Shown: positions 24,628 to 49,683 of the stretch, one piece after another
Numbering within the stretch: the first letter of the stretch is position 1
Layout: each line of letters starts with the position of its first letter
IMG/VR virus record: IMGVR_UViG_3300047557_001530
Location: 64,001-128,000 of that record
Length of the DNA stretch: 64,000 nt
DNA from: a virus
Direction: 5' to 3' (one strand)
Notes under the pieces: model-generated
Database searches by the model: none
What the model saw: the letters and a program-made list of their open reading frames with translations, nothing else
What the model was told of the DNA's origin: nothing
Position numbers and translations under genes: made by a program

Positions 24628-24714
24628 GGAGGGTCAAGCCGATAGGTGACGGCAGCTGTCTTGAAAACAGTCGAGGTGTTAAAGCCCTTAGGCGTTCGAT
24701 TCGCCTACCCTCCG
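24628..24714 (+). tRNA. tRNA-Ser(TGA)
   Basis: Acceptor GGAGGGT/ACCCTCC, anticodon loop CTTGAAA, long variable arm, GTTCGATTC T-loop. Confidence 0.93.
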
Positions 24715-24718
24715 CTTC

Positions 24719-24791
24719 GGGGAATTAGCTCAGTTGGTAGAGCATCGCCTTTGCAAGGCGGGTGTCAGGAGTTCAAGTCTCCTATTCTCCA
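24719..24791 (+). tRNA. tRNA-Ala(TGC)
   Basis: GGGGAAT/ATTCTCC acceptor with G3:U70, loop TTTGCAA, GTTCAAGTC. Confidence 0.95.
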
Positions 24792-24819: not shown

Positions 24820-25032
24820 ATGAAAAGTTTTAAACAACTAAGACAAGAAGTAACTCAAGAGTTTTATCTTCAAAAAGAAATTTTTCAAGAAGGTGATTAT
24901 ATTATGAATGTTAATACTGGACAGAAAGGCAAAATTATTCGTCCAGGAGTTAATTATGTAATTGCTGTAACGGAAGATAATCAAATGTTTCGTGCTTGGG
25001 TAAAAGATATTCGTGAAGTAAACGTTTCCTAA
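24820..25032 (+). CDS. Small SH3-like protein resembling the C-terminal domain of cyanophage cytidyltransferase
   Basis: IFQEGDYIMNVNTGQKGKIIRPGVNYVIAVTEDNQMFRAWVKDI; resemblance recalled, not searched. Confidence 0.55.
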   Translation: MKSFKQLRQEVTQEFYLQKEIFQEGDYIMNVNTGQKGKIIRPGVNYVIAVTEDNQMFRAWVKDIREVNVS

Positions 25033-25069
25033 ACATAAATAAATTAAGGAAATCATATATACTTTACAA

Positions 25070-25981
25070 ATGGAACGACAAAGAGCAACGACCCAACTAG
25101 CACATTATGACGATTTTTCTAAAGCATTGATTGAGTCGTCAGTCAGATATCTTGGCGAAGAAGGAATTCCTTCATTGCAAAAGAAAGGTAATGAAGATGA
25201 TTTCTCAAAGAAAGATCCTAAAGCAAAAGCAGCTCCTGCTGACCCAGCAATCAATATTGCTGCTGGCACTGGCACAAAACAATCTCATGGTGCAGAGATT
25301 GAATATACTACAGTTCGTGCCAAGAACGTACAGCGTGAAGAAGTAGAAAAGGAAGACGAGAGTAAAGCTGAAGAAGAAAAAGAAAAGAAGATGAGCAAGA
25401 CTGCCAAGGAAAAGCATGAGAAGGCAGAAGACAAGAAAGAAAAGGAAATGAAGGAAACCTACGAGTTAGAACTGGATGGCAATACTTACATCTTTGAGAA
25501 AAAGATGGATGGTAAGGATGACAATGGTTTCACGTCATGTTGGAAAGGATACAAGAAAGTTGGCACCAAAATGAAGGGTGGCAAAGAAGTTAATAATTGT
25601 GTTAAAGCAGGTTATGAACCAATTGGTGAATTAGTGCTTGATGAAAAAGCCCCCGCTGGGGCTAAGTTTGAAAGAATGGTTAAACATATTAAGAAGAGCT
25701 ATTCTAAAGATGGTTTAACTGATAAAGAAAAGGGTATTGCTTACGCTACTGCATGGAAGCAAAAGAATAAAGAACAGAAAGAAGAGTTTGATTTAACTGA
25801 AAAGAAACTTGATGCAGTAGGAAAGGAAGATAAAGATATTGATAATGATGGTGATCATGATAAGTCAGATAAGTATCTTTTAAATCGTCGTAAAACAGTA
25901 GGTAAAATTCTTGCTGCCAAGAAAAAAGTTAATGAAATGATTGCTTGGGAACAGGAGATTATCGCTGAAAAAAAGAACTGA
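25070..25981 (+). CDS. K/E-rich putative internal head protein; probable -1 frameshift extension to 26130
   Basis: Late promoter upstream; modules CWKGYKKVGTKMKGGKEVNNCVK and LDAVGKEDKDIDNDGD separated by hydrophobic-x-E sites. Confidence 0.7.
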   Translation: MERQRATTQLAHYDDFSKALIESSVRYLGEEGIPSLQKKGNEDDFSKKDPKAKAAPADPAINIAAGTGTKQSHGAEIEYTTVRAKNVQREEVEKEDESKAEEEKEKKMSKTAKEKHEKAEDKKEKEMKETYELELDGNTYIFEKKMDGKDDNGFTSCWKGYKKVGTKMKGGKEVNNCVKAGYEPIGELVLDEKAPAGAKFERMVKHIKKSYSKDGLTDKEKGIAYATAWKQKNKEQKEEFDLTEKKLDAVGKEDKDIDNDGDHDKSDKYLLNRRKTVGKILAAKKKVNEMIAWEQEIIAEKKN

Positions 25982-26140
25982 AGGCATCCACTGTAGAAGT
26001 GATGCCTGAAATTCCAAATAGTCCTGAAGACGGAGAAAGCTCTAAGAAGAATAAAAAGTACATCGGTAGAGCAGTAAACACACAGAAAAAAGATAAGCTA
26101 AATATTACGGGGTCCCCTCGATCAATTTAGGAGCAAAATT

Positions 26141-26311
26141 ATGAAAGTATTTTTAGGCGTAGCACAAAAAGTTGTAGAGCATTTCATGGCTAGCCGTGAA
26201 GTCAAGGAGTTTGTTATTCATCTTCTTGAGCGTTATGCTGCAACAACCGACAATGATGTTGATAACATGGTTGTCGTAATGGTTAAGAAGGCTCTTCTTC
26301 GTGAAGAGTGA
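26141..26311 (+). CDS. Small hypothetical protein (56 aa)
   Basis: Manually read MKVFLGVAQKVVEHF...TTDNDVDN; AGGAG SD. Confidence 0.7.
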   Translation: MKVFLGVAQKVVEHFMASREVKEFVIHLLERYAATTDNDVDNMVVVMVKKALLREE

Positions 26312-26463
26312 TGGAATGTTTCTTAGGAAACATTTTAGCTGACATATTACTTTTACTTTTACTTGCCCTTTCCGAATGGATGGGGCACAATAAAAATATA
26401 AAAGAAAATAGTATCTACGATTGGATACATACTAAACTTAAAAAAATTGTAAGGGGAGACTAA
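26311..26463 (+). CDS. Small membrane protein (50 aa)
   Basis: MECFLGNILADILLLLLLALSEWMG...; TGATG coupling; terminator follows. Confidence 0.55.
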   Translation: MECFLGNILADILLLLLLALSEWMGHNKNIKENSIYDWIHTKLKKIVRGD

Positions 26464-26521
26464 CTCCCCTTTTTTTATAAATATGTTTTAGATAATAAAA
26501 GATAATTAAAAGAGGGAACCG

Positions 26522-33971: not shown

Positions 33972-34672
33972 AAATTACTTTACAAAATTTCTTTGAACAC
34001 TTTGATAAGAATAATCCGAATCATGTAAAAGCAGTACAAATGTTTCTACATGCCCTAGAAAAAGCAGCACCAGAAGAACTAGAAGATACTTCTGGCTGGG
34101 TCAAAACATTCAGAACACCTGTTCAAAAACAAGCAACAAATATTTTAGAAAACTTTCCTTGGTTTCCTCAGACAGACAACTACAGGGATGCACAAAGAAC
34201 TTGTAATAGTTCTGCCTGTGCTATGTGCTTAGAATATTTAAAGCCAGGTACACTCAAAGGACCTAAAGGTGATGATGCTTATGTTCAAAAAGTATTTGCT
34301 ATAGGTGATACCACTGACCACACGGTTCAAACTCGTGTGTTGATGTCTTATGGTATTAATTCTGCTTTTAGATATAACTTAACATTTGATGAACTCGATA
34401 AGCAACTTGCAGCCAAGCGTCCAGTTGTTATTGGAATCCTTCACAGGGGAACCCTAGCAGCCCCTACAGGAGGCCATATGGTTGTTGTGATTGGGAAGAC
34501 GCCCGCAGGCGATTACATCGTTCACGACCCTTATGGCAGCCTTAACGACGGTTATACAGGACCTGTTACAAATGGCAGGGGTGCGGTGTATAAGCGTAGC
34601 GATCTTGTGCGTAGATGGTGTCCTGCAGGAAATGATGGTTGGGGTAGAGTTTTTGATGCTGTAAAAAAGTAG
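33968..34672 (+). CDS. Putative endolysin, C39-like cysteine peptidase (short form)
   Basis: QTDN...RTCNSSACAM (Cys), GGHMVVVIG (His), VHDPYG (Asp); ends GTA AAA AAG TAG. Confidence 0.8.
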   Translation: MKITLQNFFEHFDKNNPNHVKAVQMFLHALEKAAPEELEDTSGWVKTFRTPVQKQATNILENFPWFPQTDNYRDAQRTCNSSACAMCLEYLKPGTLKGPKGDDAYVQKVFAIGDTTDHTVQTRVLMSYGINSAFRYNLTFDELDKQLAAKRPVVIGILHRGTLAAPTGGHMVVVIGKTPAGDYIVHDPYGSLNDGYTGPVTNGRGAVYKRSDLVRRWCPAGNDGWGRVFDAVKK

Positions 34673-37552: not shown

Positions 37553-37624
37553 GGGCGATTAACTCAGCGGTAGAGTAATTCCCTTACAAGGAATGAGTCA
37601 CTGGTTCGATTCCAGTATCGCCCA
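37553..37624 (+). tRNA. tRNA-Val(TAC)
   Basis: GGGCGAT/ATCGCCC, ATTCC-CTTACAA-GGAAT. Confidence 0.93.
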
Positions 37625-37705
37625 TTACATCTATAAATATTATGGACAAAGAACGATATTTAAAACTTAGAAAAGAACTTGACGATATAAAAGGAATGTT
37701 GAGAG

Positions 37706-37960
37706 ATGTTAGTTATCAGATGCAAGAATTGCGGGAAAGTATTAGAGGAGCATCCTTCCCAACTACGATGCTGTCAGTGCCCCAACCTTACCAGCATCCG
37801 TGGTGGACATATCAGCGGTATGGATCTGTCGTTGGTGGAAATAATCTCGGGAGCCAAGTCCAAGCGTCAGGATCAATCGATCTTGACGAAACAAGATCTA
37901 GAATTTCAGGAACAACGAAAGCAGCGTAGAGTTCGTAGACTTGACTTTGAAGTAAGATAG
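37706..37960 (+). CDS. Zn-ribbon hypothetical protein
   Basis: RCKNCG...CCQCPN; AAGGA SD; TATAAATA upstream. Confidence 0.65.
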   Translation: MLVIRCKNCGKVLEEHPSQLRCCQCPNLTSIRGGHISGMDLSLVEIISGAKSKRQDQSILTKQDLEFQEQRKQRRVRRLDFEVR

Positions 37961-37979
37961 CCCTATAATGGGCTCATAA

Positions 37980-38051
37980 CGGGGTGTAAGTCAGCGGTAG
38001 ACGGCTTGCTTTGGGAGCAAGAAGACACTGGTTCGATCCCAGTCACCCCGA
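37980..38051 (+). tRNA. tRNA-Pro(TGG)
   Basis: CGGGGTG/CACCCCG, CTTGC-TTTGGGA-GCAAG; promoter TTGACT-N17-TATAAT at 37941-37969. Confidence 0.93.
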
Positions 38052-38069
38052 TTGTCATTACGACATACC

Positions 38070-38264
38070 ATGATTGAAATTACACAAGATGAATTTGAAA
38101 GCAACTTTGATGCCTACATGGATCGAGTTGAACAAAACCAAGAAATGTTTCTAATCAGACTACCTGATGGTAGAGGTGTTGTGATGGCACCTGTTGATGA
38201 AGAAACTAAAGAAGTTTTTGACAACGTTATTCAAAAAAATTATGTCCCTGAACTCACAGATTGA
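38070..38264 (+). CDS. Phd/YefM-antitoxin-like small protein
   Basis: MIEITQDEFESNFDAYMDRVEQNQEMFLIRLPDGRGVVMAPV fits the Phd beta-alpha-alpha-beta-beta pattern. Confidence 0.5.
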   Translation: MIEITQDEFESNFDAYMDRVEQNQEMFLIRLPDGRGVVMAPVDEETKEVFDNVIQKNYVPELTD

Positions 38265-38499
38265 AACTGCGAAAGATGCTGTAAGTAAAGCACTTATCAC
38301 AGCACTTGAAAATAAAAATGAACTTGTTGTTAGCAAGTTAATGAATTGCTATACAAGTTTGAGTACGATTACTGTTGCCGATACGTTTGCATCGTCATCG
38401 AAATATAAAATTGATTTTGGCGGTGGAATTTATACAAACAATTATAACATTCCTTGTTCTATGAACGATGATGTAATTTCATTCACTGGTCTGGGTTAG
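38242..38499 (+). CDS. Hypothetical protein
   Basis: MSLNSQIETAKDAVSKALITALE... Confidence 0.6.
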   Translation: MSLNSQIETAKDAVSKALITALENKNELVVSKLMNCYTSLSTITVADTFASSSKYKIDFGGGIYTNNYNIPCSMNDDVISFTGLG

Positions 38500-38540
38500 A
38501 CTTTAAACTTACCCTGGTGGAGCCAATTACCCTAAATGCT

Positions 38541-38741
38541 ATGTCAGAAGTTAACATGAGGTTTGTCGAAGAACTCGACACAGGTGACAAAGTAATCACG
38601 TATTACAGCGTGAAAGAGATTGACAATCGATTCTACTACGTGTATAATGATGTCAATCACGGTCCTTACGAGGACTTTGACGATGCTGTGGAAGCAGCTT
38701 ATGAAGATTTGATTCTTCAAACAGTCACGGATGGACTATAA
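38541..38741 (+). CDS. Hypothetical acidic protein
   Basis: MSEVNMRFVEEL...HGPYEDFDDAVEAA. Confidence 0.6.
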   Translation: MSEVNMRFVEELDTGDKVITYYSVKEIDNRFYYVYNDVNHGPYEDFDDAVEAAYEDLILQTVTDGL

Positions 38742-38895
38742 CAGCACTGGTCGGGACCCCCTCGATTGTCCTCGTCGGATTGGACATTAAATATGCCGAC
38801 TGGTGCGGATGGGGTTTTTAACTCCCGCCGAGTTTCCAATTTTCTCGTAATCAAAATTGGTGGCGAGCCTGCTCACGGGGATTGACCGTCCCCAC
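38723..38895 (+). ncRNA. manA-like structured RNA next to a tRNA
   Basis: Pseudoknot TGTCC/GGACA + GTCGG/CCGAC, then TGGTGCGGATGGGG..CCCGCC GAG..CCAATTTT/AAAATTGG TGGCG; recalled as resembling the cyanophage manA motif, not searched. Confidence 0.55.
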
Positions 38896-38898
38896 CCT

Positions 38899-38970
38899 GC
38901 GAGATTAATTCAGTGGTAGAATGTCAGCCTTCCAAGCTGAACGTCAGGGGTTCAAATCCCCTATCTCGCT
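38899..38970 (+). tRNA. tRNA-Gly(TCC)
   Basis: GCGAGAT/ATCTCGC + U73, TCAGC-CTTCCAA-GCTGA. Confidence 0.93.
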
Positions 38971-45561: not shown

Positions 45562-46641
45562 ATGACTGCTACTCTCGCTCAAAAGCGTGAAAGCAACACT
45601 TGGGAACAGTTCTGTGAGTGGGTGACTTCTACCAACAATCGTCTTTACGTTGGTTGGTTTGGAACTCTAATGATTCCTACCCTGCTCGCTGCTACTATCT
45701 GTTTCATCGTTGCCTTCATTGCTGCACCTCCCGTTGACATCGACGGTATTCGTGAACCTGTTGCTGGTTCACTTCTTTATGGAAATAACATCATCTCTGG
45801 TGCTGTTGTTCCTTCTAGCAATGCTATCGGACTTCACTTCTATCCTATTTGGGAAGCTGCTTCTCTCGATGAGTGGCTATATAATGGTGGACCATTTCAA
45901 CTGGTCGTCTTCCACTTTCTGATTGGTATCTATGCCTACATGGGTCGTGAATGGGAACTATCTTACCGACTGGGTATGCGTCCTTGGATTTGTGTTGCCT
46001 ACTCTGCACCCGTTGCTGCTGCTTCTGCAGTGTTCCTGGTCTATCCCTTTGGTCAAGGATCCTTCAGTGACGCAATGCCTCTTGGGATTTCGGGAACTTT
46101 CAACTACATGCTTGTTTTCCAGGCAGAACACAACATTCTTATGCATCCTTTCCACATGTTGGGAGTTGCTGGTGTCTTCGGTGGTTCTCTTTTCTCTGCT
46201 ATGCACGGATCTCTTGTCACCTCTTCTCTCGTCCGTGAGACGACAGAAACTGAGTCTCAAAACTATGGATATAAGTTTGGACAAGAAGAAGAAACCTATA
46301 ACATCGTTGCCGCCCACGGTTACTTTGGAAGACTCATCTTCCAATATGCCTCATTCAATAACAGTCGTAGTCTACACTTTTTCCTTGCTGCTTGGCCTGT
46401 TGTTGGCATTTGGTTTGCTGCTCTGGGTGTTAGCACTATGGCATTCAACCTGAACGGCTTTAACTTCAATCAGTCACTGGTTGATTCTCAGAATCGTGTG
46501 ATTAACACTTGGGCCGATGTGCTTAACCGTGCCAACCTTGGCTTTGAGGTAATGCATGAGCGTAATGCTCACAACTTCCCTCTAGACCTTGCTGCTGCAA
46601 ATACAACCCCTGTTGCACTCACTGCACCAGCTATCGGTTGA
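45562..46641 (+). CDS. psbA: Photosystem II D1 protein
   Basis: [32 protein letters not shown]; 359 aa, no intron. Confidence 0.99.
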
Positions 46642-49429: not shown

Positions 49430-49683
49430 TGGTTATTCTTCATCAAAACTGTGAACCCGAACTAGCAAATGATAGGTCTCTTCCCTATACTGCTTACCTC
49501 GTACATTATGAACTTGATGGAGCATTATGTTATGATCTAGTGATTCCTAGAAATAAAGTAGAAATATTTGATTACTATTGGGATCGATATAGAGAAGGTT
49601 TGAAATGGTTTAAACAATCCGAAGGGAGAGTAAATCCCAAACTCTGGGGAATAAAAAATAAAGAAGAAAAAAAGAAAAGATAA
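49429..49683 (+). CDS. Conserved hypothetical protein
   Basis: LPYTAYLV, IFDYYWDRY, GRVNPKLWG. Confidence 0.75.
   Translation: MVILHQNCEPELANDRSLPYTAYLVHYELDGALCYDLVIPRNKVEIFDYYWDRYREGLKWFKQSEGRVNPKLWGIKNKEEKKKR

Follow-up and report, generated by a model that had tools for sequence, protein, structure and literature searches.

Programmed −1 ribosomal frameshifting, of the type known from dnaX and IS911, very probably takes place at the end of a 303-codon gene in a T4-like cyanomyovirus, where ribosomes that slip would extend the encoded protein to about 353 residues. The initial annotation of this DNA had proposed such a dnaX-style shift with 303-aa and ~353-aa products, a proposal that comparison of related sequences supports well. 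The heptamer, the −1 open reading frame (ORF) and the stem, with its spacing unchanged, had been singled out by the initial annotation for comparison in related phages, and all three proved to be conserved there. Furthermore, the −1 frame varies between relatives in the manner of a coding sequence, and some relatives carry it with no start codon before its conserved residues. Separate translation of the −1 ORF, slippage of RNA polymerase and chance or assembly error are weighed below against this evidence.

A candidate recoding site in a cyanophage genome

Few viruses of marine and fresh waters are as abundant or as well studied as the T4-like cyanophages, for which S-PM2 serves as a model. 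The DNA analysed here (the window) is a stretch of 64,000 nucleotides, positions 64,001 to 128,000 of a 171-kb IMG/VR virus record (IMGVR_UViG_3300047557_001530) that is classed as a T4-like cyanomyovirus. The region around the 303-codon gene matches S-PM2, S-RIM32, S-CAM1 and many further Synechococcus and Prochlorococcus phages. The phage carries psbA (window 45643–46539), whose best matches (94–97% amino acid identity) lie in MAG contigs of Synechococcus and Cyanobium from fresh or estuarine waters; these matches point to a non-marine picocyanobacterial host, and some of the MAG contigs may themselves be phage DNA.

The 303-codon gene lies downstream of a DnaB-type helicase gene, mazG, two tRNAs and a 70-aa ORF, and is followed by a 56-aa ORF and then by the gene for a 366-aa virion structural protein. 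The sequence ATAAATA, which we take to be a T4-type late-promoter core, is found at window 25035–25041, 29 nt 5′ of the ATG of the 303-codon gene; if it is functional, this would be a late gene. A scan for promoters and terminators returned no gap-specific promoter, and placed the first terminator-like site at 26451–26471, past the next two small ORFs.

The 303-codon gene ends in GAA (25967–25969) AAA AAG (25973–25975) AAC TGA (25979–25981), which sets the heptamer A_AAA_AAG in the X_XXY_YYZ register, and it is surrounded by the elements listed in Table 1. The hairpin, AGGCAU-C-CACU / GUAGA / AGUG-AUGCCU, has 10 bp and a predicted energy of −13.4 kcal/mol in the 45 nt past the heptamer (z = −3.5 relative to dinucleotide shuffles), and the 86-nt context folds at about −20 kcal/mol (z = −2.2). 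From 25975 the −1 frame stays open for 51 codons to TAG 26128–26130, so that a slip after residue 302 would give a predicted trans-frame product of 353 aa, compared with 303 aa for the 0-frame product. This TAG overlaps the Shine–Dalgarno (SD) sequence of the next gene (AGGAG, 26129–26133), whose ATG is at 26141. The initial annotation had placed the heptamer, the AGGAG, the hairpin, the −1 ORF and the TAG/SD overlap at these same positions, and re-reading of the sequence bore out all of them.

Table 1. Features of the candidate frameshift cassette and the genes next to it, in window coordinates.
Feature	Position	Strand	Remark
Upstream gene, 303 aa, 0-frame product	25070..25981	+	modular, mostly low-confidence fold; phrog_4359
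SD-like AGGAG within coding sequence, candidate upstream stimulator	25953..25957	+	11 nt 5′ of heptamer
Slippery heptamer A_AAA_AAG, 0-frame register	25969..25975	+	invariant in 42 distinct junctions
0-frame stop TGA	25979..25981	+	one codon past heptamer
Predicted stimulatory hairpin, 6+4 bp, one bulged C, 5-nt loop	25982..26007	+	6 nt past heptamer
−1-frame extension, 51 codons + TAG (ELKASTVEVMPEIP...)	25975..26130	+	phrog_11250 match, coding-type variation
Next gene, 56 aa, phrog_2738, context only	26141..26311	+	SD overlaps extension's TAG

The junction in related phages

Homologous gene ends were gathered from IMG/VR, metagenomes and GenBank phages by means of the whole protein and the conserved DxDIDNDG module, the heptamer never being used as bait. 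We obtained 42 distinct homologous junctions with A_AAA_AAG and a −1 ORF of at least 30 aa, in which the stop follows the heptamer directly (30) or after 3 nt (12). A metagenome scan returned mostly other proteins with a shuffled DKDIDNDG module, and few junctions were gained from it. The codon before the heptamer is GAA in 34 junctions, GTA in 5, and otherwise GGA, GCA or ACA; its final A is thus always present, while the amino acid differs.

The distinct sequences fall into two classes. In class A, to which the isolates S-PM2, S-RIM32, S-H9-2, Sf-CH11, Sf-FP1, S-CAM1 and Sf-FR1 belong, the upstream gene ends in E-K-K or E-K-K-x, coded GAA AAA AAG, with the stop 0 or 3 nt further on, and the −1 frame reads KKxK...VEVMP... 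over 34–97 codons. Class B lacks the heptamer; a run of lysines, variable in its codons, closes the upstream gene, and the downstream ORF starts at an ATG of its own that forms an ATGA overlap, its product being ~25 residues longer at the N terminus (MKSFKQFREECGC...). The heptamer without an own start was found in 33 distinct sequences and an own ATG (MKSF...) without the heptamer in 25, whereas one sequence has both and none has neither. The Fisher test for this mutual exclusion (p = 9e-16) ignores phylogeny and overstates independence, as classes A and B may be just a few clades.

In four subgroups taken one by one, GAA AAA AAG has 0 of 9 variable columns every time, against 7 to 13 variable third positions among the 14 codons upstream. 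Treating the subgroups as independent, the joint chance of nine invariant bases is ~1e-7. Neighbouring lysine codons interchange AAA and AAG freely.

The candidate stimulators were compared across the same collection. GGAG is present in 31 of the 42 junctions, 11 nt from the heptamer in 23 and 8 nt from it in 8, against a background of 5.4% per 20-nt window. The codon before GAG, which specifies K, Q, A, R, M or G depending on the junction, ends in G each time, and GGAG doubles as coding sequence for a conserved Q/K-E; the SD-like element is absent from one subgroup, that with V-K-K tails (7 of 42). The stem begins +5 to +8 nt from the heptamer in most of the 33 class A sequences, with stem sequences that vary by subgroup, and the folding z-scores are negative in all 33 (range −0.5 to −3.7). 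Within the window's subgroup the outer GGCA/UGCC pairs do not vary, and covariation is confined to a single double-sided change, from U-A to C-G at one inner pair; a different inner pair is disrupted in 2 of the 9 sequences, and both arms encode conserved residues as well. The evidence that the downstream structure acts as a stimulator is suggestive rather than strong.

The stretch between the heptamer and the ATG of VEVMP shows how the −1 frame itself varies. Counted in the −1 frame, 6 of 35 columns vary at codon position 1, 3 of 35 at position 2 and 20 of 35 at position 3 (third-position bias, chi-square p = 8e-6), and the extension in the window matches phrog_11250 (E 2.9e-10).

In GenBank, the junction is annotated in 7 of the 7 isolates examined as two CDSs, with no ribosomal-slippage join. 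According to such an annotation the −1 ORF would be a separate small gene, whose translation would begin by coupled re-initiation, at an NTG that overlaps the stop, or at the GTG/ATG within VEVMP, and the heptamer would encode no more than the conserved lysine-rich end of the upstream protein. We consider this unlikely for class A. Class B is clearly ATGA-coupled and an A-rich run precedes its ATG too, but its lysine tails are variable, whereas the class A heptamer is fixed at three synonymous sites. A GTG, ATG or TTG does stand in the −1 frame before VEV in 27 of the 33 class A sequences, mostly arising from the TGA stop (GTGA), and initiation could supplement or replace frameshifting there; in the six others (the window, S-RIM32, Sf-FR1, L024, L108 and L111), however, all three codons are absent before the conserved VEV. 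L108 goes further, with a conserved 52-codon ORF that lacks any ATG, GTG or TTG, the methionine of VMP being replaced by leucine. Moreover, the stop is TAA in 14 of the 33 class A sequences, which excludes a start codon (NTG) overlapping the stop in these. In the window, CTG is the only such codon before VEV, and the −1 ORF has only GTG (25999) and ATG (26002), from which a 42–43-aa peptide could start, but both lie within the 3′ arm of the hairpin and no SD is found at a usable distance from them. The synonymous-type variation also covers the residues 5′ of the ATG, which argues against initiation at that codon. The initial annotation had set independent translation of the −1 ORF against its own proposal; the comparison does not refute the proposal on this ground, several relatives having no start codon from which that ORF could be translated by itself. 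A search for longer proteins with the 51-aa tail gave none, and no in-frame fusion of the two genes was present among about 220 retrieved loci.

The same fused protein could also be made by standard translation if RNA polymerase added an extra A to some of the mRNAs. The window has a run of seven A's, and one inserted A would give the identical fusion. In known cases, efficient transcriptional slippage requires longer runs. We regard this explanation as very improbable here, because the lineages with GGA, GTA or GCA before the heptamer have just six A's and still keep the exact A_AAA_AAG register; in addition, a conserved ribosome-spaced stem and an SD-like element are not expected for polymerase slippage.

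A chance arrangement with no long product, or a homopolymer assembly error that hides one continuous ORF, is more improbable still: in-frame A_AAA_AAG is not rare (11 in the 175 ORFs of the 171-kb genome) and homopolymer runs are error-prone in some sequencing methods, but 42 distinct sequences, drawn both from isolates and from the metagenomes of many projects, share one run length and register, the −1 ORF is conserved, and the heptamer and an own ATG are mutually exclusive. Three of the 11 in-frame heptamers lie at most three codons from a stop, where ~1% of codons lie (binomial p = 1.4e-4). As far as the sequences allow this to be judged, it is conservation and context, rather than the heptamer alone, that put the site beyond chance.

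The −1 ribosomal frameshift would proceed as follows. A ribosome arriving at A_AAA_AAG would have its P and A sites both occupied by tRNA-Lys(UUU), paired with AAA and AAG, respectively. It would pause as the GGAG 11 nt upstream pairs with the tail of the 16S rRNA (anti-SD), aided by the hairpin that begins 6 nt downstream and perhaps by the nearby 0-frame stop. In some ribosomes both tRNAs would then re-pair one base back (AAA AAA), and reading would continue in the −1 frame with GAA CTG AAG, adding 51 residues up to termination at TAG 26128 and giving the 353-aa protein; the other ribosomes would read AAC TGA and release the 303-aa protein. One mRNA would in this way yield two isoforms, at a ratio set by the sequence, and in relatives the same device would join the gene to a basic tail, a DUF6321-like module or a DUF3008 module. 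We infer the slipping itself, its efficiency and a role for the tail from features that were directly observed, namely the elements, their conservation, the coding signature and the relatives without a start.

The tRNA complement is compatible with this scheme. The A_AAA_AAG of dnaX is thought to be shifty because the sole tRNA-Lys(UUU) reads AAG weakly (PMC6787027). Among the 42 distinct tRNAs of a 2.1-Mb Synechococcus MAG, taken as a stand-in for the true host, Lys-UUU is the only lysine tRNA. The phage itself has 18 tRNA genes, mostly for A/U-ending codons (genome 136056–139545; window 24628–24791 and 37553–38970), which include a tRNA-Lys(UUU) at genome 138905–138980 and no Lys(CUU).

Protein modules on either side of the junction

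The 303-aa protein has no Pfam match and belongs to phrog_4359, a function-unknown PHROGs family. Neither part of the predicted trans-frame product gave a significant Pfam match, and the PHROGs families concerned are all function-unknown. The Atlas returned viral hypothetical proteins only, and the model of the 303-aa protein is of low confidence (pLDDT 0.53).

The downstream modules differ between relatives. The window has a basic KKNKKY...SQ...INITG tail, whereas a DUF6321-like module is found in S-H9-2 and Sf-CH11 and DUF3008 in S-PM2 and S-RIM32. The profile of phrog_3326 (498 positions) contains the DKDIDNDG module of S-PM2 d142 followed by the DUF3008 module of d143, and locus L131 has the same module order within one longer protein. 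As modules thus occur in the same order inside longer multi-module phage proteins, a fused product looks natural.

The DKDIDNDGDxDKSDKYL module itself, an acidic loop that resembles a dockerin or EF hand, has been shuffled into a large number of long phage proteins with several modules, at times in duplicate; examples are found at loci L290, L293, L295, L297, L299 and L300.

The initial annotation had called the 303-aa protein a putative internal head protein. No family match supports this role, which is kept as a candidate by two resemblances to the T4 capsid-targeting sequence, one in neighbouring or related ORFs and one at the end of the protein itself. The T4 capsid-targeting sequence is MKTYQEFIAE (PMC8442874). 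The N terminus of the 303-aa protein, MERQRATTQL, is unlike it. Leaders that resemble MKTYQEFIAE are found instead in the downstream ORFs of class B, as MKSFKQFREE (for example, L012:2211-2609), and in the 70-aa ORF at 24820–25032, as MKSFKQLRQE; the latter (24820) is the only ORF of the genome with an MKSF leader and the KQ(L/F)R motif. The 303-aa protein itself reads QEIIAE immediately ahead of its slippery lysines, which resembles the end of MKTYQEFIAE; the initial annotation had taken the IIAE there for a possible gp21 cleavage site. A hydrophobic-x-E sequence is kept at this position in 8 of the 9 members of the window's subgroup (I-A-E, I-N-E or M-T-E, with Y-S-E in the remaining one), whereas the other subgroups have E-T-E or E-A-E (S-PM2-like) or E-E-E (S-CAM1-like). 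We found no virion proteomics record for the family of the 303-aa protein, and the main text of Sullivan et al. 2010 (PMC3037559) does not mention it.

These observations can be combined into a speculative scheme, which we think more likely wrong than right by a wide measure, in which the family has switched repeatedly between coupled genes and a frameshift fusion, the frameshift being a device for dosing head cargo and delivering it into the capsid. In one state there would be two coupled genes, the second with a T4-like capsid-targeting leader, MKSFKQFREE. In the other state a leaderless second module would ride the first protein into the prohead, where cleavage at the leader-like QE-I-I-A-E site, which coincides with the slippery lysines, would release it. 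This device would be one of several cassettes of A_AAA_AAG, stop and hairpin across these genomes.

Further heptamers, known recoding systems and significance

A second cassette is present in the window at 34663–34669 and on to about 34710. There a 235-aa ORF closes with A_AAA_AAG and, directly after it, TAG, beyond which come a 12-bp hairpin (−18.6 kcal/mol) and a long lysozyme-like −1 ORF (..ELIREFEGCHLHAYPDP..) without an evident start. This cassette resembles the site in the 303-codon gene in having A_AAA_AAG near a stop, a hairpin and a −1 ORF, but involves other genes, has its TAG at 0 nt and forms a stronger stem; GGAG was not seen in the 30 nt inspected. A third heptamer close to a stop, at window 49668–49674, three codons before the stop of an 85-aa ORF, has a 30-codon −1 ORF and no clear stem, and is probably due to chance.

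Outside the window, at genome 57620 (6380 bases before the window start), an in-frame A_AAA_AAG occurs in a 255-aa ORF, in the context EETEKK, which is the S-PM2-type tail. Its −1 ORF runs for 16 codons, and an 8-bp stem (−13.1 kcal/mol) begins 7 nt past the heptamer; this site could represent a dnaX-like truncating shift or a paralogue remnant.

The proposed mechanism is textbook, being that of dnaX, IS911 and phage tail chaperones. In the IS3 family (IS911, IS150), OrfA and OrfAB are produced by means of A_AAA_AAG near the end of orfA, with an SD-like element upstream and a structure downstream, which fuses overlapping ORFs in the −1 frame. The present site differs in that it lies in a phage gene pair with no transposase, and in that its downstream part is short and differs between relatives. 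The lambda G/GT tail chaperone and the T7 capsid proteins 10A/10B maintain a fixed low ratio of the long isoform by −1 slippage near a stop; their heptamers, protein families and genome positions differ from those described here. In dnaX the −1 frame stops almost immediately, and the slip produces a shorter protein. Here, by contrast, it is the 0 frame that stops, one codon on, and the slip would add 51 residues; the proteins are unrelated. Escherichia coli dnaX (tau/gamma; PMC6787027) and the present site share A_AAA_AAG with an SD-like element on its 5′ side and, on its 3′ side, a stem-loop that is predicted in our case, as well as a single tRNA-Lys(UUU) for both lysine codons, which in our case is read from the stand-in host.

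No description of this site was found in the literature on frameshifting in cyanophages, S-PM2, cyanomyoviruses or Synechococcus phages, and the papers that seemed relevant deal only with frameshifts from sequencing or with a gene of a podovirus. If the reading proposed here is right, existing annotations miss a recoded gene: what is listed as two CDSs would be a single gene encoding two products, and the small downstream ORFs whose starts are odd or absent would be accounted for. Taken with the lysozyme junction of the same genome, the site suggests that cyanophages have used the dnaX-type cassette repeatedly. The family would also offer a natural comparison between ATGA-overlap coupling and frameshift fusion, useful for studying the origin of recoding sites.
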